Positions 1-21,504 of a DNA stretch of 64,000 bases are shown in pieces. The notes under the pieces are model-generated. The model did not search any database, was not told the DNA's origin, and saw only the letters and a list, made by a program, of their open reading frames with translations. The first letter of the stretch is position 1. Every line of letters begins with the position of its first letter. The stretch lies in the IMG/VR virus record IMGVR_UViG_3300020049_008481. One strand, written 5' to 3'. This DNA is from a virus (Duplodnaviria; Heunggongvirae; Uroviricota; Caudoviricetes). The position numbers were made by a program, and so were the translations under genes.

Positions 1-3
1 AGC

Positions 4-279
4 ATGCCAACGCTAGAAAAAACCCCTAGACCAATCGTTGTCCGCACCAGAGAAAATGATGATCCAGAAGGGCGTATTTTACTGGACCTTACAGTGGAAG
101 CTATCGGTGTCGGTGACGCTTGCCGTAAAGCCATAGCTTTAGCTGACATCAACTGTGAGCATCCTGACCCTGACGGGTACATTTTAGACGTTCTGTTCGT
201 GACTGACCCTGACACTGGGGAATGGAAAGTGGATGCTTTCCGATACAACCCCGAAAATCCACCGGAGATTGAGGCTTAG
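4..279 (+). CDS. hypothetical protein (start lies 3 nt from the window edge and may be a truncated N-terminus)
   Basis: ORF in track; same strand and tiling as downstream genes; no recognisable motif. Confidence 0.4.
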   Translation: MPTLEKTPRPIVVRTRENDDPEGRILLDLTVEAIGVGDACRKAIALADINCEHPDPDGYILDVLFVTDPDTGEWKVDAFRYNPENPPEIEA

Positions 280-280
280 A

Positions 281-478
281 ATGGTATTTATGGTCTTGCT
301 TGTCTTGTGTTTAGCTGGTTCGATGTATGCGCTTGTCTATGCGTTGCATAATATAAACATAAATGGTAAAATTGGGATGGATAACATTGGACTCACTTTT
401 GACACAACAGGTGCTAACCTTGCCAAGCTAAGAGAATATCCTATTATGAACTTAGCTGATTGGGATTTGGAGTCCTGA
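281..478 (+). CDS. small membrane protein (hydrophobic N-terminus MVFMVLLVLCLAGSMYALVYAL)
   Basis: ATG at 281 immediately follows the TAG stop of the upstream ORF (TAGAATG). Internal in-frame start of track ORF 233..478. One predicted TM helix. Confidence 0.3.
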   Translation: MVFMVLLVLCLAGSMYALVYALHNININGKIGMDNIGLTFDTTGANLAKLREYPIMNLADWDLES

Positions 479-661
479 TGACAGCGTATGATGACACATT
501 CAAACCTGTACCCGATAGGAATGTACGAATGAAGTATCCGCCCAAAGGGTAGAAAGTCCGTTAAGCCGATAGAAACCTTCGCACTATCTGGCAACGACGA
601 AACATTCATTACGAAGGCAATAGACCTGGCAAAGACACACACCAGCGGTGGCTCCTATGAT

Positions 662-973
662 ATGGTTGCACTGTACGTTAAAGGATCAAGAATCATCGTC
701 GGAAAGAACGACCTGATCCGACCTGCCACGACGATGAATGCATCGTATCCTGACATTGCAGGGGTTCACTGTGAACTGTCCTGCTACTACAAGAATCCAC
801 AGATGCGTGGTGGAACCATCTATGTGGCTGGACGTAAAGCATCATCTTCATCAATCATGATGAATTCGCGCCCTTGCCGGTATTGTGCTGCGCTGTTGCA
901 GTCCACTCGTACTAACTGGATTGTGTTTGTCCAAGAAGGAACTTTTGTTAAGGCCAGAATTGAGGATTTGTAA
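662..973 (+). CDS. CDA-fold zinc deaminase (cytidine/dCMP deaminase-like), 103 aa
   Basis: HCE ... (32 aa) ... PCRYCA matches the H(A/C)E-x(24-36)-PCxxC zinc-binding signature of the cytidine/deoxycytidylate deaminase superfamily. Confidence 0.6.
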   Translation: MVALYVKGSRIIVGKNDLIRPATTMNASYPDIAGVHCELSCYYKNPQMRGGTIYVAGRKASSSSIMMNSRPCRYCAALLQSTRTNWIVFVQEGTFVKARIEDL

Positions 974-1354
974 ATGCCTAAATATAAAGTCGTACTAACT
1001 GCAGCTAACTCTAACGCTCTCGGAGTAAAACATCACGAGGTTATCGTAGAAGCTGTTAACGAACGCTACGCTGAAGATGAAGGAAGAAACTCTTGGGCCA
1101 CAGCAGGGCTAGATGTAGCCCCGCCTCTCCCTATCCAGAGTGTGGAAGTAATTCTACTAGATCCACTGCGTGACCTAAGCGAGTTAATAGCCGAACATGT
1201 TTTGGAACCCCATGACTACGATGGGTGCGACGTGTATTGCAAGTGCGGGTTCGGGAGTAACGAAAGCAAGGACGCCTTTCTTCCTGATGAGAAATGGGCG
1301 GCTCATCTCACTGAAATCCTAATAAATGCTGGCTTTGTCAAGAAGGTAGAATAA
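974..1354 (+). CDS. hypothetical protein
   Basis: ORF abuts upstream stop (TAAATG); no motif recognised. Confidence 0.5.
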   Translation: MPKYKVVLTAANSNALGVKHHEVIVEAVNERYAEDEGRNSWATAGLDVAPPLPIQSVEVILLDPLRDLSELIAEHVLEPHDYDGCDVYCKCGFGSNESKDAFLPDEKWAAHLTEILINAGFVKKVE

Positions 1355-1654
1355 GTGGTACTAGACGATAGAGTTACTAGACAAGACGTGCAAGACCTTG
1401 TAGACCGAATGTATGACCATGGGGTCTTTGGCGAAATAGACATTCGCTGGGACTATTCAGGCAGAGGTATGTATGGTAAAACATGCGTCGGTTTCGTTAC
1501 CGACGTATCCCCTGTGCTTTTTGGGTACACTATGGGTCAAGCAATGGCAGAAATGAACGATCAGCGGCGGTTCATGGACCAGTCACCCACATGGGAAGAG
1601 AATGATGTCCCACGCAGAGCAGACAGTATGGGACGAAGCACGATCTACTACTAG
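1355..1654 (+). CDS. hypothetical protein
   Basis: ORF directly following previous gene (GTG start as translated in track). Confidence 0.45.
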   Translation: MVLDDRVTRQDVQDLVDRMYDHGVFGEIDIRWDYSGRGMYGKTCVGFVTDVSPVLFGYTMGQAMAEMNDQRRFMDQSPTWEENDVPRRADSMGRSTIYY

Positions 1655-1665
1655 AAAGAAACAAC

Positions 1666-2136
1666 ATGCCTGCATACCCAGCAAGCCTTTTTCTGGATGT
1701 GCCAGAAGCAGCAAAAACAACCCCTAGACCCCAACAGAACTTCAAGTCAAGAGTAAGTTCCTACCCCTCAACAACATTCATGACATTCACCGACTGTATT
1801 CATGGTGATCACTCAGAATGTGTAGAAAAAAGGGAATTCAAAGTCAGCGTTCCAGGCAGACTGACCAATGTAAATTATGAATGCGACTGTGACTGCCACT
1901 ACAAATACACACCTATAACCGATGGATACAAAAATTCCAAATGTCTTCAAAACTCACACGACGAATGCAGCGGGAACTTCTGCTCATGCTACTGTCATGG
2001 GCAAAAATACAGTCTGTCAGAAACATACGTATCACAGCAATGCGTGAGACGAGACCATGGTAAATGCGTATCGGGCAGGTTCTGCAAATGCTACTGTCAC
2101 GTAGAAGGGATACAAAATGCCCGCTATAGCTGCTAA
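1666..2136 (+). CDS. Cys/His-rich repeat protein A (three H-x-x-C ... CxCxCH units)
   Basis: Repeated motifs CDCDCHYKY, CSCYCHGQKY and CKCYCHVEG, each preceded by H/D-x-x-C; paralog of the next gene. Confidence 0.55.
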   Translation: MPAYPASLFLDVPEAAKTTPRPQQNFKSRVSSYPSTTFMTFTDCIHGDHSECVEKREFKVSVPGRLTNVNYECDCDCHYKYTPITDGYKNSKCLQNSHDECSGNFCSCYCHGQKYSLSETYVSQQCVRRDHGKCVSGRFCKCYCHVEGIQNARYSC

Positions 2137-2602
2137 AGATTTCCTCCTGCATCCTTTGAACGGCACCACGCCTGCACGCCCATATGATGACGTAGGAACG
2201 TTTTCTATGTGTCTAAGTGGAAATCATACTGGGTGCCTCAGCGAAGTGCCAATCTTTGGGGTGGACCCCAAGGTCGGTATGTTTGTATGTGACTGCAAAT
2301 GCCACGACGACTTTGATCTAGATGATTGCTACGAATTCTTCAAGTTCAGTGAATGCTTAAGTGGCTGGCACGAATACTGTCATGAAATTGACAACGTGGA
2401 AGAAGAAATGTGCTCATGCACTTGCCACGAAGACAGTGAACGAAACTTGATTCTTCAAGCATATGATGACATATGTGTAGAATTTGGGATTGATGACATC
2501 TCAGATTTTGAAACCATCAAAGCAATACTAATGGCACAGAAAGAAAACAAAGTGCTGGCTCAAGAGGGGCTAGCCCTATTAGAGACTATCCAGTCATGGT
2601 AA
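2117..2602 (+). CDS. Cys/His-rich repeat protein B (paralog of 1666..2136)
   Basis: Motifs CDCKCHDD and CSCTCHED preceded by GNHTGC / GWHEYC. 20-nt overlap with the upstream paralog. Acidic C-terminal tail. Confidence 0.55.
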   Translation: MPAIAAKDFLLHPLNGTTPARPYDDVGTFSMCLSGNHTGCLSEVPIFGVDPKVGMFVCDCKCHDDFDLDDCYEFFKFSECLSGWHEYCHEIDNVEEEMCSCTCHEDSERNLILQAYDDICVEFGIDDISDFETIKAILMAQKENKVLAQEGLALLETIQSW

Positions 2603-2623
2603 ACCAAACAAAGGAAAACTATA

Positions 2624-3439
2624 ATGCCTGACTTTTACCTTCCACCGGAAGCCGACAAGACCTACGCTTCCTACCGTCGAACCGTAGGGCAAGAGGTTGA
2701 AATGGCATCAGGTGCTGATGCTGCTGGCGTCTTGCATGCTGCAGGGCTAGCCCCTGACCGCAACCTTCACGGTTACGCTTGTTCCTGTCGTTACCGTGAC
2801 ACCTACCCTGTGCATCCCACTTCGGACTGCACGGCAGGCGGTGGTGAATTCATCATCGGTGGCTCTCGTGGAGTTCTGTTCGGATCGAAGACCTACTTCG
2901 ATGCAACGAACTATCTTGCGGTAGCTTTGCAGCAGGTCCGTGGCACCCACAGCCGATCGGTGGGCATGCACACTCACGTCGGGGCCAGCGACCTCACCAA
3001 TCAGCAGAAATGCCAGCTTATCAGAATCTACCTGAGATTCCAGGAGGAATTCTTGGAGTTGGCTGCGCTCAGTGACCGAGAGGTTCGTTCAAACGGCAAC
3101 ACCGAGCCTAGGCTGAACCAGAGCTACTACATCACCAGTCCTGATGTTTGGGAGTTGCCTGTTGCTGAGCTTTCCTTCCCTCTCCCCGGTCGCCCCACTC
3201 TAAACTTCGGTGGCCGAGGTGGACCTACCATCGAGTTCCGAGCCTGGAATGCTTCCCGAGTTGCCTGGCGTATGCATTTGGCAGCCGGTGTATCTTCTGC
3301 TATGGTAGAAGCTGCCAAAGCAGAGAAGCTGACTGTCCCCGGTGACGACTATACGCTTATCACTTTCCTTGAAGACATTGCCCCGCCTGATATCATTGGG
3401 CTGATGCATCGTCAGTTCAACTACCATAGGAGCCTGTAA
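2624..3439 (+). CDS. amidoligase-family protein 1 (GS/GCS2-like carboxylate-amine ligase fold, Amidoligase_2-like)
   Basis: N-terminal VGQEVEM, like the GxExEF start of the GCS2 family. GMHTHVG motif. C-terminal EFRAWNASRVAWR. All three blocks are shared with the paralog at 7140..8099. Confidence 0.45.
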   Translation: MPDFYLPPEADKTYASYRRTVGQEVEMASGADAAGVLHAAGLAPDRNLHGYACSCRYRDTYPVHPTSDCTAGGGEFIIGGSRGVLFGSKTYFDATNYLAVALQQVRGTHSRSVGMHTHVGASDLTNQQKCQLIRIYLRFQEEFLELAALSDREVRSNGNTEPRLNQSYYITSPDVWELPVAELSFPLPGRPTLNFGGRGGPTIEFRAWNASRVAWRMHLAAGVSSAMVEAAKAEKLTVPGDDYTLITFLEDIAPPDIIGLMHRQFNYHRSL

Positions 3440-4273
3440 ATGCCTATTACTCTAGCTAGACCAGAACTTTATGATCCGTTTGGATTTCTTCTAGAAGAGG
3501 AACTTCCACAGATCATGACGTATGCCTTGCCTGACGATGGCGCTGGCGTAGTATCTTTCTTAACTTCATCACGTCCAACTGACGAGGAAGTTGAGGCCCG
3601 CCTGGAAGAGATGAGGCTAGCCGAGATTGCCCGTTCCAGAACAGGATGTTACTTCAACAACTGTAATGATCCAGTAATCTGGAGCGCCCGACTACTTGTT
3701 TCCCCATCTAATTGTCCAGGTAGAGATGGTCGCTGGCGGACCAATTACAGAGCCGAGCGTGTTTCACTGTGTTCCGAGCACGCAGTCAACTGGCATGGCG
3801 GCTTCTCTAACATGACACGCCAGCGTGACCGGCATCCGGCTATGCCGACAGATACGGTAGAGGTTCCTCATACAAGAGTCGATGGGTTCAGAGATGTTAT
3901 AACGATGATCCCTAACCCCGGACACTATAGGCTAACTGGCCGAACCGGGTCATACCAAAATGTTCACATCTCCCGAGTCACTGAGCACAGTGTTCAGGTC
4001 GAAATCACTGATGACTCTGGTGCGCTAGTTCATAATTCAAGAGTGAACAATGATGATCGTGGGAGTGGAGACTACATCACAATACACCCTAGGCGCAACA
4101 CGCTTAGAACTATCTGTCAAGTCGAGATGGAAGCTGCAAGAGCATGGGGCCAGCATCATGGACGTGACCCCCTAACCCATTATGTCCTTCGCTCTGAAAG
4201 TTCCAGGGCTGCAGGCATGAGCACAAACACTTTCCGTACAATCTATAGGAGAATAAACAATGCCGTGTCGTGA
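3440..4273 (+). CDS. hypothetical protein (277 aa) inside the amidoligase cluster
   Basis: ORF abuts upstream stop (TAAATG); no motif recognised. Confidence 0.5.
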   Translation: MPITLARPELYDPFGFLLEEELPQIMTYALPDDGAGVVSFLTSSRPTDEEVEARLEEMRLAEIARSRTGCYFNNCNDPVIWSARLLVSPSNCPGRDGRWRTNYRAERVSLCSEHAVNWHGGFSNMTRQRDRHPAMPTDTVEVPHTRVDGFRDVITMIPNPGHYRLTGRTGSYQNVHISRVTEHSVQVEITDDSGALVHNSRVNNDDRGSGDYITIHPRRNTLRTICQVEMEAARAWGQHHGRDPLTHYVLRSESSRAAGMSTNTFRTIYRRINNAVS

Positions 4274-4562
4274 TATTAACTGTGATGACGAATACTGTGA
4301 TGCTGACGACTACTATGAGGACGACTACTATGAAGATGACTACTCCGAGGGAGCGGGCCGAGTGATTTGCCGTTCATGTAATGAAGAGGACAACCTCCTT
4401 GATATCCTAACAGAGACAACGTACTGCCAGTGCAGAATCCCCCCTGGAACAATGTATATCAAGGTAGAAACCCCACTGGCAACGCTGGTGGCCAATAAGC
4501 CTAGTGAGGAAGCGTGGCCGGTCGTGCCACCCGATGAGGTTAAGCCGAAAATCCATTCATGA
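4260..4562 (+). CDS. acidic Tyr/Cys-rich small protein (DDYYEDDYYEDDYSE repeat)
   Basis: ORF with three tandem 15-nt repeats encoding DDYYE units, flanked by CxxC/CQC cysteines. ATGA overlap with the downstream GGCT gene. Confidence 0.5.
   Translation: MPCRDINCDDEYCDADDYYEDDYYEDDYSEGAGRVICRSCNEEDNLLDILTETTYCQCRIPPGTMYIKVETPLATLVANKPSEEAWPVVPPDEVKPKIHS
4305..4349 (+). repeat. 3 x 15-nt tandem repeat (gacgactactatgag / gacgactactatgaa / gatgactactccgag)
   Basis: Read directly in the sequence; encodes DDYYE-DDYYE-DDYSE. Confidence 0.7.
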
Positions 4563-4951
4563 GGAAGCTTTTCGTTTACGGAACCTTAAGGCCCGGAATG
4601 GCTTTATATCCGCTACTAGCAGACGTAGTAGTAAAATCTATTCCTGCAACTATTGAAGGTGAGCTTCACTCTTTCATGGGTGGAGCTTACCCGGTTGCAT
4701 TCCTAGATAAGCCGGGAGTAATTAAGGGTGATATCCTAACATGTTTAGAACATGGAGGCACACTTAACTCAGTGTGCGCTATGGAAAGACGTGCAGGATA
4801 CACGGAAAAGCTCGTAGATGCCACTACAGAGGATGGTAGAATCATTGAAGTCATGGCATTCGACTTCACTGAATACAGATTTATGGGTACGGATTGTGCA
4901 GTCACTTCCGGTGACTGGAAACAGTTCTGTGCCGAGAATCGCTACTATTGA
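4559..4951 (+). CDS. gamma-glutamyl cyclotransferase / AIG2-like family protein
   Basis: N-terminal KLFVYGTLRPG, the hallmark hFVYGTLk.G motif of the AIG2/GGCT fold; size 130 aa. Confidence 0.7.
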   Translation: MRKLFVYGTLRPGMALYPLLADVVVKSIPATIEGELHSFMGGAYPVAFLDKPGVIKGDILTCLEHGGTLNSVCAMERRAGYTEKLVDATTEDGRIIEVMAFDFTEYRFMGTDCAVTSGDWKQFCAENRYY

Positions 4952-4976
4952 CATTTAGCAGAACATCTGCTATACT
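4948..4976 (+). promoter_or_regulatory. sigma70-like promoter TTGACA-17-TATACT with a palindromic operator-like site (TAGCAGA-ACA-TCTGCTA, 4956..4972) in the spacer
   Basis: Exact consensus -35 hexamer and 17-nt spacer. The -10 TATACT is identical to three other candidate promoters in the window. Lies in the 106-nt gap upstream of the GAT-II gene. Confidence 0.4.
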
Positions 4977-5057
4977 GATATAAATAGTGCGTCAACCAAC
5001 GTACTTCAACTTTAAAAAACAAATCCATCTAAAGACGATGGTAAACTCAGAAAGAGG

Positions 5058-6506
5058 GTGGTCCTCATTTGTGGGATCGCAGGAATTAATCTATCAGATC
5101 AAGACGCAGGCGTCATCGACGCCGCTCAACTAGCCAAGAACCTACTTCTTGGAATCCAGTCCCGAGGCCGAGACGCCTCAGGAGCCGCATGGTACGACAC
5201 TGACGGTGTGCTAATGATCCAGAAGGATGCAATGGCAGCCACCAGCTTCGTAGAACAGCTTGACCTACCGAGTGACGCTCGGAATGTCATTCTCCATACA
5301 AGGATGGCTACCCAGGGTAGCCCCGAAAACAACCACAACAATCACCCGATCATTACCGGCAACATCGTTGGTGTTCATAACGGAGTTATGCACAACGACT
5401 ACAACTTGTTCCAGAAGATCGGCCCAGGTAGACGAATTGCCCAGGTAGACACGGAAGCGATCTTTGCTGCCATCGCCTATGGGCTAGAGAAGGACTCAGA
5501 TGGCAAGCATCTGATCGCCGGTTCCATTCCAGAAATCCTTAACGAGATTTCTGGTTCTGCTGCAATTGCATGGCAGGAAATTGATGGGAATCCCACAACG
5601 TTCCGTGTAGCCAAAATCTCTGGGTCCCCGTTCGTGTTTGCCCAGACTCCCGGTGGGTCTTTCATCTTCGCTTCTGAAGCTGAAATTCTCAACAAGGCTG
5701 CTGCAGCTTCAGACGTGGAACTACTGTTCGTTGACTCATTGACTGACGGTACTTTGATGGAGATTGACGCTGGCAAGATCGTGGCAGTCAATACCTGGGA
5801 AGACAAGACGCCTACCAAGAAGACGTACACCACTGGATCAGGCTACGTCAATCGATCTACCAACACTCCGACTCAGGGCACTCTGCCTGTTACTACAACT
5901 GGCAGCGACGAGTCAATGACTGAAATCATCGCAAAGGTGATGTCAGATTCTTCCTTTCATTCCCTTGCTGCCTCCCATGGGACGGTTGTTAACCATCTCA
6001 GCGAAGGCACTTACGTCGGGAATGGCAAATACGACGAAGAGTATGTCGAACGTGAAGCGTCTATTGATAGGTTCATGAAGCATATCAGTGACGAGCCTGA
6101 CACTGTGATTGACACCGTTCGGGACCTTCACGGCTTCGTTCGCCCTGGCAACTGGGTGATGACAGGCGTAGGCAATGTCCCCATCGTTGGGCAGATTGTT
6201 TCCCTACCCCAAGCGTTCCCCTACGGAGAATACATGATCAAGGGGTACTTCCCGATCAACAAGTATGATGACTTCGACACTGTTCTAGTCTCACGAAGCA
6301 ACGAAGATTTCATTGTATTCAATCAGGCAACACAATACATCCTTGACTCTGGGACTAGTCTAACAGCAGAGATGCTCAACACGTTCCAGTTGATCCTAGA
6401 GGATCTAGGAACCTATGTGGACTCAAGTGAGGACAAGTATGTGAGAACTTCAACTGGCAAGGATTACGTAGTGGGACCTGACAAGTCCCTTGTTCCAGTG
6501 AACTAA
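5058..6506 (+). CDS. class-II (Ntn-type) glutamine amidotransferase domain protein with an uncharacterised about 260 aa C-terminal domain
   Basis: N-terminal (MVLI)CGIAGI, with RGRDASG, HTRMATQG, NHP, HNGVMHNDYNLF and DTEAI blocks, match the PurF/AsnB/GlmS-type GATase-II domain. Four residues precede the catalytic Cys, implying a propeptide or a different start. Confidence 0.65.
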   Translation: MVLICGIAGINLSDQDAGVIDAAQLAKNLLLGIQSRGRDASGAAWYDTDGVLMIQKDAMAATSFVEQLDLPSDARNVILHTRMATQGSPENNHNNHPIITGNIVGVHNGVMHNDYNLFQKIGPGRRIAQVDTEAIFAAIAYGLEKDSDGKHLIAGSIPEILNEISGSAAIAWQEIDGNPTTFRVAKISGSPFVFAQTPGGSFIFASEAEILNKAAAASDVELLFVDSLTDGTLMEIDAGKIVAVNTWEDKTPTKKTYTTGSGYVNRSTNTPTQGTLPVTTTGSDESMTEIIAKVMSDSSFHSLAASHGTVVNHLSEGTYVGNGKYDEEYVEREASIDRFMKHISDEPDTVIDTVRDLHGFVRPGNWVMTGVGNVPIVGQIVSLPQAFPYGEYMIKGYFPINKYDDFDTVLVSRSNEDFIVFNQATQYILDSGTSLTAEMLNTFQLILEDLGTYVDSSEDKYVRTSTGKDYVVGPDKSLVPVN

Positions 6507-6513
6507 GGAAAAA

Positions 6514-7152
6514 ATGACAACTGTACAAGTAACCGGAGCCGTCGTAGGATCGGCACCCCAGCGGCGATCGACTATCAGAATAGTCGTACCTGTCAGAAAA
6601 AAGCTCCCTGACGGACTAATCCAGCATTCGACCTATTCCGTGCCGCTTCCCGATTACATCAGCTTTTCTGAATGGTATGATCTAGTTGAAGAAGAAGTAT
6701 CACGGCTACGTCACAATAAACAGTGGAAAGACTCTCCATGGATTGAAATTTCCAATAAGGCCAAGGAAAAGCTAGGCAAGCTTCTTATTCATCTAGAGAA
6801 AAACCCTAACGATGTTGCTGCTGGCATAGCTTTTCATAACAAGGTTAACAGATACCTTAGTCTACATAAAGCACGAGAGAATAAGGTAAGCAGAAGCTAT
6901 ACAGCACCACCAAAGGAAGTTGAAAAGCTCCCTGGATGGAAGCTAACAACCTTCCCTATTAGCCAAACTGGTGCTGCACTAATTCACTCCATTATTGGGA
7001 CTAGAGAAGAAGCTATCAAAAAGGCTGAAAAGGTACACAAGGAGCTAGTGGGTAACACGGTTCTGATCGGCTGTAAAAGGATGGAGCCTGTAACCTTAAC
7101 TAAGCCAGACACTAAAAGCTACTACTACAACTATGGGATGTGGGACTATTGA
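6514..7152 (+). CDS. hypothetical protein (212 aa)
   Basis: ORF tiled between the GAT-II gene and amidoligase 2; no motif recognised. Confidence 0.5.
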   Translation: MTTVQVTGAVVGSAPQRRSTIRIVVPVRKKLPDGLIQHSTYSVPLPDYISFSEWYDLVEEEVSRLRHNKQWKDSPWIEISNKAKEKLGKLLIHLEKNPNDVAAGIAFHNKVNRYLSLHKARENKVSRSYTAPPKEVEKLPGWKLTTFPISQTGAALIHSIIGTREEAIKKAEKVHKELVGNTVLIGCKRMEPVTLTKPDTKSYYYNYGMWDY

Positions 7153-8099
7153 CCACTTTTGGAATGGAAATCGAATTTCAGGACAATGCTGAACTTCTCG
7201 TAGAGAAGACGCACATGCTTTACCCTGAGCTTCTGCCCTCAGATTCATTACACTCATACCACTGTGACTGCAACAACTGCATGAGTCGCACTGTGACCCT
7301 AAGAGCGCAACGTGACTCTAGTTGTTCTGGAGAGCTAATCACAAAAGTCTTCAACGAAAACGAGTTCTCTGAATTTGTAGAGGTTCTAGACTGTCTTCAG
7401 GAAGTCGCTGTCGAAGTTGACGCTGTGCCTGGAACAAACGCTGGCGTTCATGTTCACGTTGTCCCAGTTACAGAAAACTTTCTACAGTGCCATGAGTTAT
7501 TATGGCAGTTTATGCGGTGGGAGGATGCAGTCATCCGGCTGGCTAATGGAAGATTCCCTGGCCTCCGTCCGATGAATACGTCAGTTCAGGAATCAAACCT
7601 GTATAACCTTCACACCCTATGGTACGATTATGCCCCAGAGGGGGAAGCTAGGAGAAGAGAGCTATCCGGGTTCAGTGAGTACGTTAAAAAGATTGACGCC
7701 CTGCCCAGCACCTTAGAGGTCGAGGTTGGTCAGCCTAGAGGGGCAACTAGGGAATGGTGGCTAGCTAACCTATTCAACAATCATTATGAAGCGGACAGGC
7801 ACTCGAATCTTGCAATCCGCACACGTCACGACACTTGGGAGTTTAGAGTGTGGAATTCTACACGCTCAGCTTGGCGTTGGGAAATGTATGCCAAAATGTC
7901 TCTGTTGTTAGGGAACTACGAGTTCATGAGTAACCTGAAAGACGTAGAGGTGCCCTCAGACCCGGACGAGGCTCTTGCGGTCCTTCATCCTCTAGTTGGC
8001 GCAAGAGATGAACGACTTGGGGAGTTGATGGGTAAGCAGATTGCATATCAGAATAGTGCAAACTATGGGTGGACTGATTTCTATCAGGTTAGCAGGTAG
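7140..8099 (+). CDS. amidoligase-family protein 2 (paralog of 2624..3439)
   Basis: FGMEIEF N-terminus, GVHVHVV, and EFRVWNSTRSAWR, which aligns with EFRAWNASRVAWR of the paralog. Confidence 0.45.
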   Translation: MGLLTTFGMEIEFQDNAELLVEKTHMLYPELLPSDSLHSYHCDCNNCMSRTVTLRAQRDSSCSGELITKVFNENEFSEFVEVLDCLQEVAVEVDAVPGTNAGVHVHVVPVTENFLQCHELLWQFMRWEDAVIRLANGRFPGLRPMNTSVQESNLYNLHTLWYDYAPEGEARRRELSGFSEYVKKIDALPSTLEVEVGQPRGATREWWLANLFNNHYEADRHSNLAIRTRHDTWEFRVWNSTRSAWRWEMYAKMSLLLGNYEFMSNLKDVEVPSDPDEALAVLHPLVGARDERLGELMGKQIAYQNSANYGWTDFYQVSR

Positions 8100-8101
8100 A
8101 T

Positions 8102-8839
8102 ATGCCACGTAACTACACTTTTACTACAACTACCCCACATGATTTTGCCCTCTCTGCATCTGCCATAGATGAGCAGCTTGAGCGTCTATTAACCCTACAT
8201 CCTACGACAGAAGAAAGAGCGTATTATATGCCAACAACAGCACGATCTAGAACTAGAGCCGAACAGGCAAGCGAGCTTTTACAGCGCAGAGTAAACCAAA
8301 CAATCCTGTCATCGGCTACTGATATTGAACATCCCCCTAGGCTGCCAGACCTGCCACAAGACCTCAACCTTGTGACATGCACCTACAATTCCGACAGGTC
8401 ATCATACCTGCAGTACGCCTCCCAAGCGTACTCGTTCTTTCGACAGACAGCTAGCAGGTATTCCCCAGCTACGCTAAACGCAATTGCGTATATCTCAGAC
8501 AATGCACACGATGGGACAACCGCTGACCTGCCGCAAATATCTGTAGCCCAAATCCCTTACCACTACGATGATGAATCCGAAATAAAGTTTGGTGGAATCA
8601 TTGGCATGCGAATTTCTTGGCCGGGGAAAACTGTCCTTACAGTTCACCCCCAGGTTCGTAGGTCTGGCATTGGGACGTTACTTGTATCTGATTCCTCTAC
8701 CCCGCTTAAGCTCTGGGTTGGGCGAACGAACATTGCTGCACAGATTTTCCTCCTATCCAGAGGGTTCTATGCAGAAGCTTTCAACCGAAACGGAGCGGTC
8801 CTTTACAGCAGGAACTCTGACGACGCAGAAGGGTCTTGA
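8102..8839 (+). CDS. protein with a C-terminal GNAT-like acetyltransferase motif
   Basis: VHPQVRRSGIGTLLV resembles the GNAT acetyl-CoA-binding motif (Q/R-x-x-G-x-G/A); the N-terminal 150 aa are unassigned. Confidence 0.4.
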   Translation: MPRNYTFTTTTPHDFALSASAIDEQLERLLTLHPTTEERAYYMPTTARSRTRAEQASELLQRRVNQTILSSATDIEHPPRLPDLPQDLNLVTCTYNSDRSSYLQYASQAYSFFRQTASRYSPATLNAIAYISDNAHDGTTADLPQISVAQIPYHYDDESEIKFGGIIGMRISWPGKTVLTVHPQVRRSGIGTLLVSDSSTPLKLWVGRTNIAAQIFLLSRGFYAEAFNRNGAVLYSRNSDDAEGS

Positions 8840-9297
8840 TCGAAATCAATGAGTCAACTATTGAACCGGAATTCGTTTTTGAGATAGATGCATACAAGGT
8901 AGTCGAAGGGGACTTCATCGTCCACAAAGACGAGATAATGTATGTTGAAGATGTCGAGAAGCTTGAAAACACTCCACTCCCGACTGTAGCTATTTCGGCT
9001 AAAGGTCCTCATGGGCACAGGGATGTTATGTTTTTTCATTTCGATGAGGGCGTGCAAATCTATTGTCCTAAAACTGATGACTACGATGACATTAAAGACA
9101 GAGAAGGCTACCAGCAGTTCGCAGATGGCGGATATGATGATGAAGAGGATTACGATATGTTCTGGAATAATAGACATGGATGGGACTCTTATCATGGATA
9201 CAGGTCAGTAAAGAAGACTTATTCCCCTGTGATGCCGGTTCCTCTTCCTGCTTCAACTATTCTTAGTAACGTTAAAGACATATTCAGGAGACAATAA
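8836..9297 (+). CDS. acidic hypothetical protein
   Basis: ORF overlaps upstream stop by 4 nt; Asp/Glu/Tyr-rich. Confidence 0.45.
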   Translation: MIEINESTIEPEFVFEIDAYKVVEGDFIVHKDEIMYVEDVEKLENTPLPTVAISAKGPHGHRDVMFFHFDEGVQIYCPKTDDYDDIKDREGYQQFADGGYDDEEDYDMFWNNRHGWDSYHGYRSVKKTYSPVMPVPLPASTILSNVKDIFRRQ

Positions 9298-9536
9298 TGA
9301 TTGTTGTTCATCAGGAACCACTCATTCAACTTCGCCGTATCCGAAGCAACGGAGCGGGTTATGACGCTTGGAACCTCTGGGCTTGGTCTATCCTAGATGG
9401 GGACCGCCGAACGGGCGGAACTTTCGAAGGAGCTATCTCCCCTGCACACGCAACCCGAAAACTTGCCCGCATTGTGCGCCGACCGAACCGCCAGATCTGG
9501 ACCCAGGTTTCTAACGATGAGATGAGATACAAATGA
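9297..9536 (+). CDS. hypothetical protein
   Basis: ATGA-type overlap tiling. Confidence 0.4.
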   Translation: MIVVHQEPLIQLRRIRSNGAGYDAWNLWAWSILDGDRRTGGTFEGAISPAHATRKLARIVRRPNRQIWTQVSNDEMRYK

Positions 9537-10048
9537 CAACATGGTGTTGTGACATAACAAAAGAAGAAAGCCCACTAGCCCATAAAACCTTCGAGCACCC
9601 CAACTGGTGCCCGCTTTCACCTGACTATGTTCCCGCATTCAAAGAATACTACAAGTCGATAGATGAAGAGTGGTATAACAAGAAGAAGTACAAAATCAGT
9701 AAGCTACCTGCCCGAGTCTTGTGGAAAGGCGATGTTTTAGTATCAAAGAAGAATCAAAGATGGCTGGTCGTTGGTAGAGAAGTAGACGACGCTCTCATCT
9801 GGGTTAATCTAAAGAACATTGATGTAAGTTATGACAACTATAAGTATGGATGCTTCGACAAGGAAGAAGAAGTTAGCATGATTATAAAGCCGTCAGGACT
9901 TAAGACTAAGACATTACGGCGAGCATATCCTGCTAGACCTGCCAGTCATCTACTTATTGAGGCTCTAACTTTGAATGAAAAACTCCCTGAAAGAGTTGAA
10001 TCATGGGAGAAAGCATACTCTAACCCAAGAAAGATTTCTAGCAAATAA
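9533..10048 (+). CDS. hypothetical protein
   Basis: ORF, tiled. Confidence 0.5.
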   Translation: MTTWCCDITKEESPLAHKTFEHPNWCPLSPDYVPAFKEYYKSIDEEWYNKKKYKISKLPARVLWKGDVLVSKKNQRWLVVGREVDDALIWVNLKNIDVSYDNYKYGCFDKEEEVSMIIKPSGLKTKTLRRAYPARPASHLLIEALTLNEKLPERVESWEKAYSNPRKISSK

Positions 10049-10458
10049 TGGCAGACACAAATACATCTTTAAAAGAAGTAGCAATAATGAAAGCATCAGA
10101 AACAGTAAAAGTATCTACAGTACAGTTAGAGAGAGAAAGTTCCAGGCAAGGCAGGGAAGAGCTAATTAAGCTTCTAGCAATTGACGCCCTTCTTAAGTTG
10201 TTGGACTACGGTAACTGTGAACTAAAAAACATTAATCTAGTTCATTCAGGAATGCCTGAATTCGTAGACGACGCATGGGTTGTACCGCAAGTAGAGGTTC
10301 ATATTGAAGCGGATACGGTTCCTATCGTAATGACACGGCATGCCACAATGGCAACCTCCACTGAGGCAGCCTGGCATTACTTCTGTCACGGTGAAGCATT
10401 CCTTGATATTGCAGAATTGGGATCTATACTTATAGGCCAAATGGCAGAGGAAGATTAG
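10048..10458 (+). CDS. hypothetical protein
   Basis: ORF, tiled (TAATG overlap). Confidence 0.5.
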   Translation: MADTNTSLKEVAIMKASETVKVSTVQLERESSRQGREELIKLLAIDALLKLLDYGNCELKNINLVHSGMPEFVDDAWVVPQVEVHIEADTVPIVMTRHATMATSTEAAWHYFCHGEAFLDIAELGSILIGQMAEED

Positions 10459-10625
10459 TGCATATACTGTATGCGGATACGGCATGCTTTGGATTCACCC
10501 TCCGTAATGCAATAGCTCGTGGAGATAGACCTGCTTTAGAGGCACTAAAGAAAGAGCTTGACACTACTGATAGAATGAATCATAAATACTCAACAGTACG
10601 TTGGATCGAATACGAAAGTGATTAA

Positions 10626-11399
10626 ATGCCTAGAGCGCACGTAGCAAACTTCACAATCCAGCTAGGACCAATCAGCCTGACTGGAAGACTATTCAATATC
10701 ACCCTACCGAACCGAAACGAATACCGTGAATTCGTTTCAATCGCACCCGACATTGAACCCCCAACGAGGGTTCAGCAAGTGTATCAGACGCCCGAAGGCA
10801 CAGGCTCATGGACCCGAGGACAATTAGCTCGGGCACGTGTTGTCCTTAATAATGAAGGCGAAGAAGAACTAGTCAAGGTGTCAGTAGAAGATGTTGCAGA
10901 AGTAAGGACATCAACTCTACCTGAGAACGTTCTACGCACAACCATTCATCCACGTAAAGAAATTGAAGGATCAACATTCTTTGCGGAAGGCTCATATGTG
11001 TTCGTGCCTAACATTGCAGACGAATATCATGGCCTAGTTTTAAAGATGGTTTCAGACTCAGACAAGGCATTCGTTGGCATGTGCAAGGTACGTACCACAG
11101 AAGGATTCTGGCGGCTAACAACATGGCGCAACCAGATTGTAGTACAGAAACTGCTGTGGCCCGATGAGGTAACAGAACTTGAAGGTGTGAGTGTGGAACT
11201 TCCACAGGAACATTACGATGCAGCCATGCAGATGATTGACCGTGTAACAGTAGACTTTGATGCTTCACAGTACAGAAACGCATACCGTGAACGTTCTGAA
11301 CAGTTAGACGCAGAGCTTAGTGGTTCTGAGTTGCCACGAGAGGCCCCTACAACACCCGTAGACAGCCTCCTGAGCATCCTTGAAGGGTTCGGTGCCTAA
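10626..11399 (+). CDS. hypothetical protein (257 aa)
   Basis: ORF preceded by a 160-nt gap that may hold a 55-aa GTG-start ORF. Confidence 0.5.
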   Translation: MPRAHVANFTIQLGPISLTGRLFNITLPNRNEYREFVSIAPDIEPPTRVQQVYQTPEGTGSWTRGQLARARVVLNNEGEEELVKVSVEDVAEVRTSTLPENVLRTTIHPRKEIEGSTFFAEGSYVFVPNIADEYHGLVLKMVSDSDKAFVGMCKVRTTEGFWRLTTWRNQIVVQKLLWPDEVTELEGVSVELPQEHYDAAMQMIDRVTVDFDASQYRNAYRERSEQLDAELSGSELPREAPTTPVDSLLSILEGFGA

Positions 11400-11562
11400 T
11401 ATGATTAAAAGAGCTGTTGGAGATAAGGTTATCCATAGACCTTCTGGATTTACTGGCAAGATAGTAGACATCAACCAAACACTTGTTTATCTGGTGGAAC
11501 TAGATAATGGGGACTTAGTTGTATCGCTTTCAACTGCCATCAAATCATTAGAGGGGGAATAA
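11380..11562 (+). CDS. hypothetical small protein
   Basis: ORF, tiled. Confidence 0.4.
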   Translation: MKGSVPNMIKRAVGDKVIHRPSGFTGKIVDINQTLVYLVELDNGDLVVSLSTAIKSLEGE

Positions 11563-18282: not shown

Positions 18283-19419
18283 ATGGCAATAGCGGATAGA
18301 CAATTAGCCTGGAATGATCTTCAGCCATGTGGCAAACAAAAGAAGCACAATTGGGACGGACGCCTCTGTCTCAGATGCGGATTCAAAATCCATAGGCGAA
18401 AGAAGATATCTCAGACTAAAATCAAAATCCTAAAAGAACAGCAGGATAACAAATGTTTCTACTGCAAACAAGAACTTAACGAAGAAACATTAACTGTTGA
18501 CCACAAGACCCCCATTAGCAGACAAGGTACGGATGCTATAGAAAACTTATGCCTAGCCTGCAAGAAATGCAACCTAGAGAAGAATAACTTAACGTTAGAA
18601 GAGTTCAAAATGCATCTTCCAATGCTCGCAGAATCCATGGACAAAGAACGACTAATGGAACTAGTCAGCGATAACTCATTCTGCTTTCAGCAAAAAGTTG
18701 ACGGAGACAGAATGATAGTCGAGGTTGACAACGGAGCGGTTACCGTCTACAATAGGGATGGTAAAGAATACACTCGCCAGGTAAAAGTTTTACGTCCTGT
18801 GATTAAAGAGTTCTCGAATCCAGAATTCTTTAAAGGTGTATGGCTATTCGATGGTGAATATATTAACCGCAAATATTATGTCTTTGATCTAATCAAAGTG
18901 ATCAACACAAACGGTGTTAATATCATTCAAGACGCCACTTACCATATGAGATTAGACTGCCTCAACACGATCTTCAATCATTGGGCACCTAATCACATCA
19001 TGCAACTCCCTTCGCATCTTACCTCCAAGGATAAAGAAGATTTCTTAGATAAGGTTGACGCATCTAATTCAGAAGGCGTAATTGCCAGACGAATGACTGC
19101 TCCATACCAGTCAGGTGCAAGGACAACGAACTTACTTAAGTTTAAGTTCGTTGAAACGGCTGACCTAAGAGTGACCGGCATTAATGAACAGGCAAGTATT
19201 TCCCTAGAGTGTGCTGACGATATCCCCATCGGTAATTGCACTATGAGCGCAACTAATCTTCGTAGGGTAAAGATTGGTGACATCGTTGAGATTCGCTACT
19301 TATATGTAGGGAAAAGTAATCGGCTATATCAGCCTGCGTTCATGAGAATCCGTAATGACAAGTCGGAACCAGATCCTTTTGGTTCACTTAAGCTAGTAAA
19401 TAAGGATGTACTGGTATGA
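18283..19419 (+). CDS. HNH endonuclease domain fused to an ATP-dependent polynucleotide ligase (nucleotidyltransferase) domain
   Basis: N-terminal CFYCKQ...TVDHKTPISRQG...NLCLACKKCNLEKNN (HNH with CxxC pairs). Ligase motif I KVDGDR, motif III FDGEYI, motif IV-like SEGVIARR, motif V LLKFKF. Confidence 0.6.
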   Translation: MAIADRQLAWNDLQPCGKQKKHNWDGRLCLRCGFKIHRRKKISQTKIKILKEQQDNKCFYCKQELNEETLTVDHKTPISRQGTDAIENLCLACKKCNLEKNNLTLEEFKMHLPMLAESMDKERLMELVSDNSFCFQQKVDGDRMIVEVDNGAVTVYNRDGKEYTRQVKVLRPVIKEFSNPEFFKGVWLFDGEYINRKYYVFDLIKVINTNGVNIIQDATYHMRLDCLNTIFNHWAPNHIMQLPSHLTSKDKEDFLDKVDASNSEGVIARRMTAPYQSGARTTNLLKFKFVETADLRVTGINEQASISLECADDIPIGNCTMSATNLRRVKIGDIVEIRYLYVGKSNRLYQPAFMRIRNDKSEPDPFGSLKLVNKDVLV

Positions 19420-21081: not shown

Positions 21082-21344
21082 TGGGGGTAGCTGAAAGGTT
21101 CCTTGCAGATACATGTAGTTCCCTTCTATACCTACTTGACCGAGGCGAGTTTAATGACGAATTGGCTGACGTACGGGAGCACATTCGGTACACTAATGTC
21201 ACGGAACTTGATTCTATGCATGTAGTCTACGCTGGGAGAGAAATAGAAGTTACAGCTAGAGACTTAGGTGCTCATGTCCACACTTGGGTTTCTTCTAAAT
21301 ATGGAGATAAGTGCAGTGTATGCAGGGCATTAGATGATGAGTAA
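21081..21344 (+). CDS. hypothetical small protein
   Basis: ORF, ATAATG overlap. Confidence 0.4.
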   Translation: MGVAERFLADTCSSLLYLLDRGEFNDELADVREHIRYTNVTELDSMHVVYAGREIEVTARDLGAHVHTWVSSKYGDKCSVCRALDDE

Positions 21345-21504
21345 GGCTGAGGTATTAGCAGAAGCTTTTATGGAGAAGTACGGTCTAATTAATTGTGGTA
21401 TGCTTGTTTGTATCGGCCCCAGAGAATATCGTTCTGATATACAAAAAGCATATAATGAGGGTTACAAGCAAGGGCAAGAGTTAGTTAATAGAGCGGAGAG
21501 ATAG
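21337..21504 (+). CDS. hypothetical small protein (about 55 aa, below track cutoff)
   Basis: ATG overlapping the upstream stop (GATGATGAGTAA) and running to the TAG that overlaps the GTG start of the vWA gene. Confidence 0.3.
   Translation: MSKAEVLAEAFMEKYGLINCGMLVCIGPREYRSDIQKAYNEGYKQGQELVNRAER

Follow-up and report, generated by a model that had tools for sequence, protein, structure and literature searches.

A divergent phage amidoligase, Ntn-amidotransferase and gamma-glutamyl-cyclotransferase cassette with a GNAT-like gene and a Cys-rich acidic partner protein

The window, that is the whole stretch of phage DNA analysed, comprises 64 kb of a source genome of at least 130 kb. All open reading frames (ORFs) of the preliminary description are located on its + strand, the genes are tightly packed or overlapping, and the sole intergenic gap in the block is at positions 4952-5057. 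The core of the cassette corresponds to 2624-8839, and the following features were assigned within and upstream of it:

662-973, + strand: CDA-like ORF (HCE...PCRYC) with weak statistics
1666-2136 and 2117-2602, + strand: two Cys/His-repeat paralogs, directly upstream of the core (BLASTP paralogy)
2624-3439, + strand: AmLigA, carboxylate-amine (COOH-NH2) ligase paralog 1 of the GS/GCL superfamily, with an LHxYxCxC knuckle (sub-threshold PF12224, family profile, motifs)
3440-4273, + strand: embedded lineage-specific ORF of 277 aa with no assigned family
4260-4562, + strand: short CysAcid member (DDYY protein, 100 aa), Cys-rich, acidic, Tyr-rich and zinc-ribbon-like (family HMM, alignment, composition)
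4559-4951, + strand: GGACT/AIG2-like gamma-glutamyl(amine) cyclotransferase (PF06094, phrog_2520, YGTLR)
4948-4976, + strand: candidate sigma-70-like promoter, TTGACA-17-TATACT with extended TG, in the sole gap upstream of the GATase gene
5058-6506, + strand: class-II (Ntn, Cys1) glutamine amidotransferase-type amidohydrolase, GATase or GAT-II (GATase_6/4/7, phrog_14519, 1xff)
6514-7152, + strand: embedded lineage-specific ORF of 212 aa (pI 9.6) with no assigned family
7140-8099, + strand: AmLigB, carboxylate-amine ligase paralog 2, with a conserved LHxYHCDCxxC knuckle
8102-8839, + strand: GNAT-like acyltransferase, with an RRSGIG CoA-binding-type motif in the C-terminal ~145 aa and a variable N-terminal region (PF13508, family profile)

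Comparison of AmLigA with Pfam gave a sub-threshold match to PF12224 (E 0.012). Its homologues form 16 clusters with 40-50% identity and AmLigA was found in 11 related loci; for a tblastn search of 50,697 phage records the ligases were too divergent to be detected. The motifs GxExE, HTHV and EFRxWN..R..WR are conserved in AmLigA, and the ExE, HxH and ExR motifs are conserved in both ligase families. Alignment of the AmLigA family profile with the AmLigB profile (hhalign 99.95%, E 1.7e-38), the shared motifs and the top structural neighbours, which are glutamate-cysteine ligases (GCL) and a YbdK-like enzyme and not PafA, back the earlier claim that two paralogous GS-like ligases are encoded here.

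The GATase consists of an amidohydrolase domain of ~260 aa and a conserved C-terminal domain of ~210 aa without recognised fold. Matches above threshold were obtained to Pfam families GATase_6 (E 2.9e-12), GATase_4 (E 1.9e-7) and GATase_7 (E 6.7e-6), and the protein also matches phrog_14519 (E 4e-42) and the GlmS glutaminase domain 1xff (E 2.3e-11). Across 9 GATase sequences there is no variation at Cys1, at R and T in HTRxAT, at N-G in HNG or at D in VDTE, and the GlmS-type Gln-pocket residues are likewise invariant in the family, which keeps the full pocket for the alpha-amino-acid moiety of free L-Glu or L-Gln; affinity to EgtC and GATase_4 is weak. The preliminary description had placed a 4-residue propeptide, MVLI, in front of the catalytic Cys. 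As the Shine-Dalgarno sequence AAGAGG (5052-5057) is immediately adjacent to the GTG and 9 nt upstream of an ATT at 5067, directly 5' of the Cys codon, and as homologues start with MCGI(A/S)G (8/8), MVLI is probably an artefact and the true start is probably this ATT. The promoter candidate upstream agrees with the consensus in 11 of 12 positions and is the best site in 12 kb; because the total of sigma-70-like sites equals the shuffled expectation, it is regarded as a consensus match only.

The GGACT protein matches PF06094 (E 4.2e-12; 47.1 bits, cutoff 22.8) as well as phrog_2520 and has the YGTLR motif at its N-terminus. The GNAT-like protein alone gave a sub-threshold match to PF13508 (E 1.1e-3; 19.8 bits, threshold 27). 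For its family, 124 representatives were obtained by phmmer; 56/79 members match PF13508 and 24/79 match PF00583, and the family profile matches the N-terminal acetyltransferase-like protein 6zmp (E 3e-4). The earlier fold and family assignments are upheld, and the catalytic motifs are intact.

The DDYY protein contains a DDYYEDDYYEDDY tract, encoded by a tandem repeat of 15 nt x 4.2 (4279-4344), followed by CxxC-x9-LTE-x3-CxC. It is recognised by a CysAcid family HMM built without it (E 1e-4), its alignment and composition (pI 4.05) agree with this family, and it represents only the last third of the family, in truncated form. The terminal motif with its invariant Glu (E52) is found by pattern in 9 of 12 family members and as variants in 2 more. 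A Cys-rich ORF with 13-31 Cys and a pI of 4.1-5.0 (trimmed to the first Met) is located between AmLigA and GGACT in 11/11 loci holding that interval, and the family HMM recognises 7 of these 11 ORFs; locus L002 has a divergent copy in the interval, and its canonical, HMM-recognised copy follows the GNAT gene. In locus L009, a DEDDYYECDCC insert is present in the Cys knuckle of the AmLigA-like ligase. The proposal that the acidic Tyr-rich protein is a candidate substrate is strengthened by the presence of its Cys-rich acidic family inside the cassette in every related locus holding the AmLigA-GGACT interval, and this pattern suggests the CysAcid protein as a candidate substrate or carrier.

By an HMM scan of 26 loci and unbiased clustering, a block of AmLigA, GGACT, GAT-II, AmLigB, the GNAT-like gene and the Cys-rich, acidic, Tyr-rich protein was found conserved in ~25 related metagenomic loci. 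The GAT-II gene is present in 16/16 loci, ligases in 14, the GNAT-like gene in 12, where it adjoins GAT or AmLigB, and GGACT in 10, and unbiased clustering of the related loci revealed no further recurrent enzyme family. The idea of a cassette kept as a block in related genomes therefore withstood the comparison that could have overturned it. For the five enzymes and the acidic protein this applies, but not for the deaminase, the Cys-His paralogs and the domain-less ORFs that had been counted in. The CDA-like ORF does show the HCE...PCRYC motif, but its matches are statistically weak (E 0.04 in Pfam; E 0.54 to a cytidine deaminase in the PDB) and it is not conserved with the cassette. The Cys-His proteins, which contain three (1666-2136) and two (2117-2602) C-x4-H-x2-C...CxCxCH repeats, are paralogs as stated earlier (BLASTP E 5e-9), and neither the related loci nor 50,697 phage records yielded a homologue. 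That they belong to the cassette is doubtful; the only ties are adjacency and a CxCxC flavour that recurs in the ligase knuckle and in Salgado gp96. ORF 3440-4273, included only because of its position inside the block, has no match in Pfam, PHROGs or NCBIfam and no homologue in related loci, and hhalign showed no relation to the ORFs that take its place in other loci; for ORF 6514-7152 neither a family match nor a homologue in related loci was found.

These ORFs (662-2602, 3440-4273, 6514-7152), which are not conserved with the block, together with the dense packing and synteny by descent typical of phage genomes, could indicate that the genes are early or middle neighbours without joint function. 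However, the five enzyme families and the partner stay together through rearrangement (the two gene orders GAT-B-GNAT and B-GAT-GNAT), although ligases across loci share only 30-40% identity, and unrelated cultured phages also carry some of these families together. Chance neighbourhood is therefore already disfavoured and very improbable.

A phage cassette of amidoligase, GAT-II and ATP-grasp, with or without GGCT, was predicted by Iyer, Abhiman, Burroughs and Aravind (2009, Mol Biosyst), described in phage RIO-1 (Hardies et al., 2013), and is present in phiEco32, 7-11, LUZ24, PaP3, tf, UFV-P2, PA11/TC6, CW02 and PSA-HP1; the earlier link to amidoligase/GAT-like/AIG2 neighbourhoods in Pfam and Aravind-group work was correct. 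The window shares with it two GS-like COOH-NH2 ligases, a long (~480 aa) class-II GATase, sometimes the gamma-glutamyl cyclotransferase, and a position among early or replication genes. The GATases show 28% identity (E 1e-8 to 1e-11) and the AmLigB model structurally matches the 'amidoligases' of tf and CW02. In contrast, the window has a GNAT-like gene in place of the ATP-grasp, PF14395 is matched by neither of its ligases, both of which are PF12224-like and have a Cys/His knuckle, and the Cys-rich acidic partner is not seen at the equivalent place in Alcaligenes phage QDWS535, where the ORF between the ligase genes encodes 2 Cys. For the window's GATase (36-37% identity), GGACT (35%) and ligase (best TM-score in BFVD), the closest cultured relatives form a GGACT - 'carboxylate amine ligase' - GATase triad in Arthrobacter phages (Ottawa gp64-66, Salgado gp97-99). 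There GGACT is preceded by a small protein containing Cys (in Salgado gp96, CTCDCAPC and DDYGDHCYDD), but, unlike in the window, the triad has a single ligase, its GATase is short and lacks the C-terminal domain, and a GNAT-like gene is missing. The cassette is a divergent, phage-only version of the amidoligase/Ntn-amidotransferase/gamma-glutamyl-cyclotransferase cassette.

Because gamma-glutamyl chemistry is common to the three enzyme families, we infer that the cassette may make and trim gamma-glutamyl-type amide bonds, and we tentatively take the substrate to be protein-borne. AmLigA and AmLigB would activate a carboxylate with ATP, most likely the gamma-carboxylate of Glu, and couple it to an amine. 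The Cys1 Ntn amidohydrolase would hydrolyse gamma-glutamyl amides or supply ammonia from glutamine, GGACT would take the gamma-glutamyl group off the amine as 5-oxoproline, and the GNAT-like enzyme would acylate an amine. The substrate or carrier would most likely be macromolecular, either the co-encoded CysAcid protein (here the DDYY protein) or a host protein. A similar enzyme logic is found in 'add then remove' systems such as EgtA/EgtC in ergothioneine synthesis, BtrJ/BtrG with the carrier BtrI in butirosin synthesis and the gamma-glutamyl cycle of GSH, in which gamma-Glu is added by a ligase and removed by EgtC, a class-II GATase-fold hydrolase, or BtrG, an AIG2/GGCT-fold cyclotransferase, and which also involve an acyltransferase and a carrier protein. 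These pathways differ in that their ligase families are partly other (BtrJ is an ATP-grasp) and the window's setting is a phage, and there is no sequence-level orthology, the EgtC model giving only E 0.005 over 50 residues. The partner resembles in character LysW, a small acidic zinc-ribbon carrier, but LysX is an ATP-grasp, unlike the cassette ligases. A Pup-like protein of the Pup-PafA/Dop type is absent from the cassette. As the CysAcid C-terminus is not conserved and has neither a conserved terminal Glu/Gln nor an EDWGE tail, it cannot be a C-terminal attachment point of the Pup or LysW type. Alternatively, these acidic, Cys-rich proteins might act as DNA mimics or regulators and simply accompany the block. 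This alternative, the variable C-terminus and the truncation of the window's own partner speak against a protein target.

Against a protein target also count the ligases' best structural neighbours, which are small-molecule ligases, and the action of GGACT and GAT-II enzymes on free gamma-glutamyl compounds, in the case of GGACT gamma-glutamylamines, and not on intact proteins. The same points, together with the GAT-II pocket fitting a free L-Glu or L-Gln moiety, agree with the classical reading, in which the cassette synthesises and recycles a peptide or amine with a gamma-glutamyl group. This might be a thiol resembling glutathione or a gamma-glutamyl-polyamine, or the chemistry might concern linkages and amidation of peptidoglycan stem peptides; it would serve to remodel the metabolism or the surface of the host cell, for instance in superinfection exclusion. 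Ligase, Ntn-hydrolase and cyclotransferase mirror the gamma-glutamyl cycle, EgtA/EgtC and PuuA-type polyamine glutamylation, and a GNAT could perform polyamine acetylation or peptide capping. A related block has also been named 'peptidoglycan modification cassette' (PMC5498523; PMC10580990), but no test of that idea was found in the literature. Yet the constant, non-enzymatic Cys-rich acidic partner is left unexplained by this reading, unbiased clustering revealed no transporter, Mur-type ligase, lipid-carrier or secretion-related gene in the block, and the cassette products all look cytoplasmic. We consider a small-molecule or envelope role possible but rather unlikely.

The neighbourhood of the closest cultured relative also counts against a protein target. 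In phage Ottawa, three ParB_N proteins, a Tet_JBP-like oxygenase (a sub-threshold match, E 1e-6) and a P-loop nucleotide kinase (PF18751, E 1.4e-39) are encoded within ~600 bp after the triad; the homologue of this kinase in Gordonia phage MakoManhole adjoins an annotated aGPT-Pplase2. By analogy to thymidine hypermodification pathways, ligases, GAT-II, GGACT and GNAT might decorate or deprotect a 5-hmU/5-hmC-derived pyrimidine of the phage DNA that carries an amine or an amino acid, a reading we likewise consider possible but rather unlikely. It is favoured by Pfam amidoligase and amidotransferase matches, with no assigned role, in metagenomic contigs with 5-HMUDK and aGPT-Pplase2 and by a GNAT shown to acetylate 5-aminomethyl-dU in DNA (PMC8989533); a GNAT acetyltransferase is among the tailoring enzymes of the clusters of M6, PaMx11, ViI, SP10 and PhiW-14 (Lee et al., 2018, 2021), comparable to the window's GNAT-like gene. 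CDA-like ORFs near the cassette in the window, L009 and L020, and a CDA domain annotated on one viral amidoligase-fold protein, point the same way. However, the 5-hmdU DNA kinase, aGPT-Pplase/AADT and 5-hmU source that define the thymidine clusters were not found in the window or related loci. Among ~70 window ORFs, Pfam revealed no dUMP/dCMP hydroxymethylase, Tet/JBP, ParB, P-loop DNA kinase, aGPT-Pplase, glycosyltransferase or deazaguanine gene, an absence that for the source phage rests on 64 kb of at least 130 kb; a 1,293-aa ORF (59371-63255) without Pfam match has a weak partial thymidylate-synthase match (PHROGs, E 1.2e-4, 75 residues). Hydroxymethylase, Tet/JBP, P-loop DNA kinase and aGPT-Pplase were likewise not found in the flanks of ~25 related loci, and with the ParB, Tet and kinase of Ottawa as phmmer queries nothing was detected in the window or in 25 related loci with flanks of up to 10 kb. 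No standalone Walker-A kinase candidate was found and no DNA-modification family is among the recurrent families of the related loci. Known hypermodification genes normally occur in clusters.

For the related cassette, peptide or protein modifications have been predicted, and we found in the literature neither an experiment testing this role nor an experimental determination of the target (protein, small molecule or cell-wall precursor, phage DNA). Papers up to 2024 cite only the 2009 prediction, in line with the earlier remark that an experimentally defined function is lacking. What the variant described here adds to the family is a GNAT in place of the ATP-grasp and a newly recognised protein partner.

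The open reading frames (ORFs) listed for the block in the preliminary description are all present on the + strand, where they abut or overlap by 4–20 nt, and the only gap in the block measures 106 nt (4952–5057). The genes discussed here are the following.

662–973, + strand, CDA-like deaminase ORF
1666–2136, + strand, first Cys-His repeat protein
2117–2602, + strand, second Cys-His repeat protein
2624–3439, + strand, AmLigA, ligase paralog (271 aa)
4260–4562, + strand, DDYY protein, Cys-rich acidic Tyr-rich partner (100 aa)
4559–4951, + strand, GGACT
5058–6506, + strand, GATase, class-II glutamine amidotransferase (GAT-II)
7140–8099, + strand, AmLigB, ligase paralog (319 aa)
8102–8839, + strand, GNAT-like protein

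A candidate promoter close to the sigma-70 consensus (TTGACA-17-TATACT, extended TG), recognised by consensus match only, lies at 4948–4976 in the sole intergenic gap of the block; transcription from it would divide the cassette into two units.

Loci around homologues of these proteins were obtained by exact-protein look-up (6 loci), from IMG/VR (2) and from JGI/ENA metagenomes (15); their six-frame ORFs were scanned with HMMs built here, and all ORFs were also clustered without prior models. GAT-II recurs in all 16 non-redundant loci, both ligases in 14, the GNAT-like protein in 12 and GGACT in 10, and the Cys-rich acidic Tyr-rich protein constitutes a sixth recurrent family that had not been flagged as such before. 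Beyond these families, neither the HMM scan nor the unbiased clustering of the loci revealed a recurrent enzyme. The ligases of the related loci are merely 30–40% identical to those of the window, and the genes occur in two orders (A-Cys-GGACT-...-GAT-B-GNAT and A-Cys-GGACT-...-B-GAT-GNAT), so that their linkage survives rearrangement. The core of what the preliminary description had taken for one block is conserved as a block in related genomes, with five enzyme families and the Cys-rich acidic partner recurring; the deaminase and the Cys-His paralogs, which it had listed in the cluster as well, are not conserved with this core and were rejected as core parts. No counterpart of 974–1654, of the Cys-His paralogs, of 3440–4273 or of 6514–7152 was found in any related locus, and 3440–4273 was rejected as an orthologue of the ORF following AmLigA in three of them (L001, L006, L008; hhalign probability 0.2%). 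The boundaries of the cassette are now better defined, at 2624–8839. Upstream of it, 1355–1654 is a 99-aa ORF matching phrog_14658 (unknown function) with a Walker-A-like GRGMYGKT, too short for a kinase. A gene for a Ku-like DNA-end-binding protein recurs about 8–10 kb downstream of the cassette in five loci, the window included (10626–11399, phrog_4873; also L001, L002, L006 and L008).

In IMG/VR, a single-protein pattern scan gave no match and a profile scan gave 2 loci only. Scanning 185,579 species genomes with alignments of AmLigB and the GNAT-like protein yielded no relative, and 50,697 cultured-phage records gave no tblastn match to either ligase, to a Cys-His paralog or to a full-length member of the partner family. 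In the sequence collections searched, the clade is known from uncultured viruses only.

Both ligase paralogs have the catalytic fold of glutamine synthetase and glutamate-cysteine ligase (GS/GCL), as the preliminary description had proposed. Taken alone, each falls just below the PF12224 cutoff (15.9 and 20.0 bits against 22), and PF12224 has a precomputed match in 14 of the 40 homologue clusters of AmLigB; 16 homologue clusters were obtained for AmLigA. The profiles of the two families match each other with an hhalign probability of 99.95% (E 1.7e-38), and the viral structures that best match the AmLigB model are annotated as phage 'amidoligases', those from tf, Salgado and CW02 among them. 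The N-terminal GxExE, the HxH and the ExR motifs are kept in both families together with a Cys/His knuckle (LHxYHCDCxxC), and ATP-dependent carboxylate-amine ligation is predicted from the conservation of ExE, HxH and ExR. The possibility that one of the ligases is of the PF14395 type was discarded, as no match to this family was obtained. An AmLigA-like ligase from another locus (L009, 5366–6457) carries within its Cys knuckle an acidic insert rich in Asp, Tyr and Cys (DEDDYYECDCCSGYCDH...; DEDDYYECDCC), which resembles the separate Cys-rich acidic partner proteins.

The interval between AmLigA and GGACT contains a Cys-rich acidic ORF in 11 of the 11 loci that have this interval. These ORFs encode 13–31 Cys, 8–19 Tyr, about 20% Asp plus Glu and up to seven CxxC pairs, and when trimmed to the first Met show pI values of 4.1–5.0. 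The family HMM recognises seven of them; in one locus (L002) the copy in the interval is divergent and a canonical copy recognised by the HMM follows the GNAT gene. The DDYY protein of the window is detected with an E of 1e-4 by a family HMM built without it, and corresponds in alignment to the last third of the family proteins, which consists of an acidic D/Y tract followed by CxxC-x8-10-L-x-[TS]-E-x2-[YF]-x-C-x-C. The Glu of this terminal motif is invariant (E52 in the window protein) and internal; the C-termini of the family are variable and display no conserved attachment residue or tail. Membership in Pup/PafA or LysW systems was rejected, as the partner family is without a conserved C-terminal tail. 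Just upstream of the Salgado GGACT, gp96 (L027, 6785–7315) contains CTCDCAPC and DDYGDHCYDD, the former resembling the CxCxCH units of the Cys/His-repeat paralogs of the window.

The GATase passes the Pfam threshold (GATase_6, 47.2 against 27 bits) and is the only one of the proteins searched that NCBIfam names. A Shine-Dalgarno sequence (AAGAGG, 5052–5057) abuts the GTG chosen by the ORF finder (5058) and lies 9 nt upstream of an ATT (5067), which directly precedes a Cys codon (5070) and would place this Cys as the N-terminal nucleophile. As all 8 GATase homologues begin with MCGI(A/S)G, and given the spacing of the Shine-Dalgarno sequence, the gene probably starts at ATT 5067, and this start fits better than the four-residue MVLI propeptide assumed previously. 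Alignment of 9 sequences to GlmS (1xff) reveals as invariant the R and T of HTRxAT, the N-G of HNG and the D of VDTE, which we take to be the equivalents of GlmS R73, T76, N98-G99 and D123. In GlmS, the counterparts of these residues hold the alpha-amino and alpha-carboxyl groups of glutamine. Because these pocket residues are invariant, the GATase probably binds either glutamine itself or a compound that likewise presents a free L-gamma-glutamyl head group. Its C-terminal part of about 210 aa is conserved in the clade and matches no family in Pfam, NCBIfam or PDB, and no known type of fused or partnered synthase (acceptor) domain was found for it; the GATase may act by itself as an amidohydrolase or work together with a ligase.

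GGACT matches PF06094 over the whole profile above threshold (47.1 against 22.8 bits) and carries the YGTL(R) motif in its N-terminal KLFVYGTLRPG; a candidate catalytic Glu is E76 in CAMERRAGY, which falls at the margin of the weak alignment with AIG2-like 2jqv (E 0.31). The GNAT-like protein of the window on its own falls below the Pfam GNAT threshold (19.8 against 27 bits), and its single-sequence AF2 model has a pLDDT of 35.5. Its family comprises 124 representatives among 1.84 billion proteins (phmmer), of which 56 of 79 match PF13508 (best E 8e-8) and 24 of 79 match PF00583, and the family profile matches the N-terminal acetyltransferase-like 6zmp (E 3e-4). Motif A for CoA binding (R/Q-x-x-G-x-G/A) reads RRSGIG in the window and is kept in 4 of 6 aligned homologues. 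It is this family-level evidence that points to a GNAT. The Cys-His proteins (1666–2602, CxCxCH units) are true paralogs with 3 and 2 repeats, unique to this phage, and an hhalign probability of 0.4% led to the rejection of their membership in the Cys-rich acidic family. The CDA-like ORF at 662–973 contains HCE...PCRYC, with weak scores.

A computational description of phage GS-like ligases together with a GAT-II Ntn domain and an ATP-grasp enzyme, often with a gamma-glutamyl cyclotransferase, was reportedly given by Iyer et al. in 2009, and the same combination is said to have been described also by Hardies et al. in 2013. Like the classical amidoligase/GAT-II/ATP-grasp cassette (QDWS535, UFV-P2), the block has two GS-like ligases and a long class-II GATase. 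In contrast to that cassette, Pfam detects no ATP-grasp or PF14395 (COOH-NH2_lig) ligase among the ORFs of 1–11400, and clustering of the related loci revealed no such recurrent family.

GS/GCL-fold ligases make L-gamma-glutamyl amides, Ntn GAT-II enzymes hydrolyse them, with substrates that include glutamine and gamma-glutamyl adducts (EgtC), and GGACT takes the L-gamma-glutamyl group off amines as 5-oxoproline. Pathways in which gamma-Glu is added, chemistry is performed and gamma-Glu is removed again are exemplified by EgtA/EgtC and by butirosin BtrJ/BtrG, the latter with an acyltransferase and a carrier protein. As three enzyme families of the cassette are inferred from family knowledge to act on an L-gamma-glutamyl amide, the cassette could be a module for the formation and trimming of gamma-glutamyl-type amides, in which the GNAT performs a capping or transferring step. 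We tentatively favour a protein-borne substrate or carrier over DNA tailoring and over small-molecule or cell-wall chemistry, since the clade always has a Cys-rich acidic protein and never, visibly, base-activating enzymes. Later genome papers speak of a 'peptidoglycan modification cassette', or raise a superinfection-exclusion or secondary-metabolite idea (PMC5498523, PMC10580990, PMC3890496, PMC6209634, PMC11318856), and a search of the full-text literature found no experimental test of the cassette. That its enzymes work on a free small molecule or on the cell wall appears unlikely to us in view of the ever-present partner.

The window comes from the genome of a large tailed phage. Its DnaE-type polymerase has its best matches (42–43%) in Streptomyces and Saccharomonospora phages and in a human-faecal phage contig, and it also encodes a primase-helicase, RecA, ribonucleotide reductase, clamp loader, thioredoxin, MazG, tail proteins, a CHAP-domain (endolysin-type) protein and one tRNA-Met. 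The region 600–9000 shows no DNA-level resemblance to cultured phages by megablast. At about 34,500, coding strand and GC skew change sign (+ strand genes before, - strand genes after), and the tRNA-Met (32540–32614) lies just upstream of this switch. A middle segment of the primase-helicase ORF (37456–40404, 982 aa) matches PHROGs that carry the annotation terminase large subunit or helicase loader, and the N-terminal part of an ATP-dependent DNA ligase ORF (18283–19419) is HNH/endonuclease VII-like; both may be inteins or homing-endonuclease insertions. A MoxR/CobS-like ATPase (phrog_19600) is followed by a VWA-domain protein at 19906–23072, with a second VWA-like ORF at 23803–24414, and the full-length bacterial-type RecA (40412–41371; PF00154, E 4.6e-122) adjoins a PD-(D/E)XK nuclease and a Sak4-like annealing protein. 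Nucleotide-pool genes, namely a small phosphoribosyltransferase-domain ORF (35201–35581) and a MazG-like pyrophosphohydrolase (29767–30315), might influence DNA composition. Proteins identical to window ORFs are encoded on JGI contigs as long as 130,702 bp, and the window therefore represents at most half of a source genome of at least 130 kb.

The nearest cultured relatives of the GATase, GGACT and ligase of the window are found in Arthrobacter phages. In phage Ottawa (OQ938580.1; locus L005, 7516–12451), a GGACT-ligase-GATase triad is followed within about 600 bp by a run of genes for three ParB_N proteins, for an oxygenase resembling Tet_JBP (E 1e-6, below threshold; annotated 'oxidoreductase') and for a P-loop nucleotide kinase of PF18751 (E 1.4e-39; annotated 'adenylate kinase'), and a homologue of this kinase adjoins an annotated aGPT-Pplase2 in a Gordonia phage. 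These genes have the appearance of a thymidine hypermodification cluster, here in a phage that is in culture, and give real support to the idea that the triad acts on DNA in that lineage. The NEB group has reported that thymidine-hypermodification clusters from metagenomes include Pfam domains of amidoligases and amidotransferases, and has shown that a GNAT acetylates 5-aminomethyl-dU in DNA (PMC8989533). Weak pointers in the same direction are CDA-like ORFs (H[AC]E...PCxxC) near the cassette in three loci (window, 662–973; L009, 8588–8941; L020, 16199–16654), of which those of the window and L009 are members of one small family (BLASTP E 8e-5). A further weak pointer is BFVD entry A0A6J5KPZ7_1, which matches the amidoligase model and has a CDA domain in its annotation. 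Another BFVD entry matching this model is annotated with a LIM domain. However, Pfam detects no hydroxymethylase, Tet/JBP, ParB, P-loop DNA kinase or aGPT-Pplase gene among about 70 window ORFs, and unlike a thymidine hypermodification cluster the block was found without a 5-hmdU source, a P-loop 5-hmdU DNA kinase or an aGPT-Pplase/AADT. PHROGs searches with 30 window ORFs gave one weak partial thymidylate-synthase match in a 1,293-aa ORF (59371–63255), a Walker-A search gave no candidate kinase, and phmmer searches with the ParB, Tet and kinase proteins of Ottawa against the whole window and 25 loci gave nothing. As hypermodification genes are usually clustered and none were found here, tailoring of DNA by the cassette enzymes is considered improbable, but it keeps some weight, as the 64-kb window leaves out at least half of a genome that measures 130 kb or more.

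Within the preferred reading of a protein-borne substrate or carrier, a more specific proposal, which we regard as doubtful, is that the phage ligates groups onto a protein after translation, or runs a pathway with a carrier protein like LysW, with the adduct on the Cys-rich, acidic, Tyr-rich partner. The adduct, gamma-glutamyl or aminoacyl, would be formed by the two Zn-knuckle GS-fold ligases on this dedicated zinc-ribbon-like protein, possibly at its invariant internal Glu; GAT-II and GGACT would serve to erase it or to deprotect, and the GNAT would be a capping enzyme. If true, this would be a new protein-tagging or carrier chemistry found only in viruses.

The block is a new, virus-only variant of a known, experimentally unexplored cassette, with a newly recognised partner protein. 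The cassette and the acidic candidate of the preliminary description have held up, and its deaminase, Cys-His paralogs and propeptide have not. Annotations of amidoligase/GATase cassettes exist for many phages, those of Pseudomonas, Vibrio, Escherichia, Arthrobacter and marine bacteria as well as crAss-like groups, and since 2009 their function has been a matter of computational prediction alone. The present clade contributes a conserved non-enzymatic partner as an obvious candidate substrate or carrier, by which the question becomes testable, and cultured Arthrobacter phages are usable as a model because the same triad adjoins thymidine-oxidation and kinase genes there. Either outcome would give a function to widespread unknown phage genes, be it virus-specific protein ligation or a new branch of DNA hypermodification.
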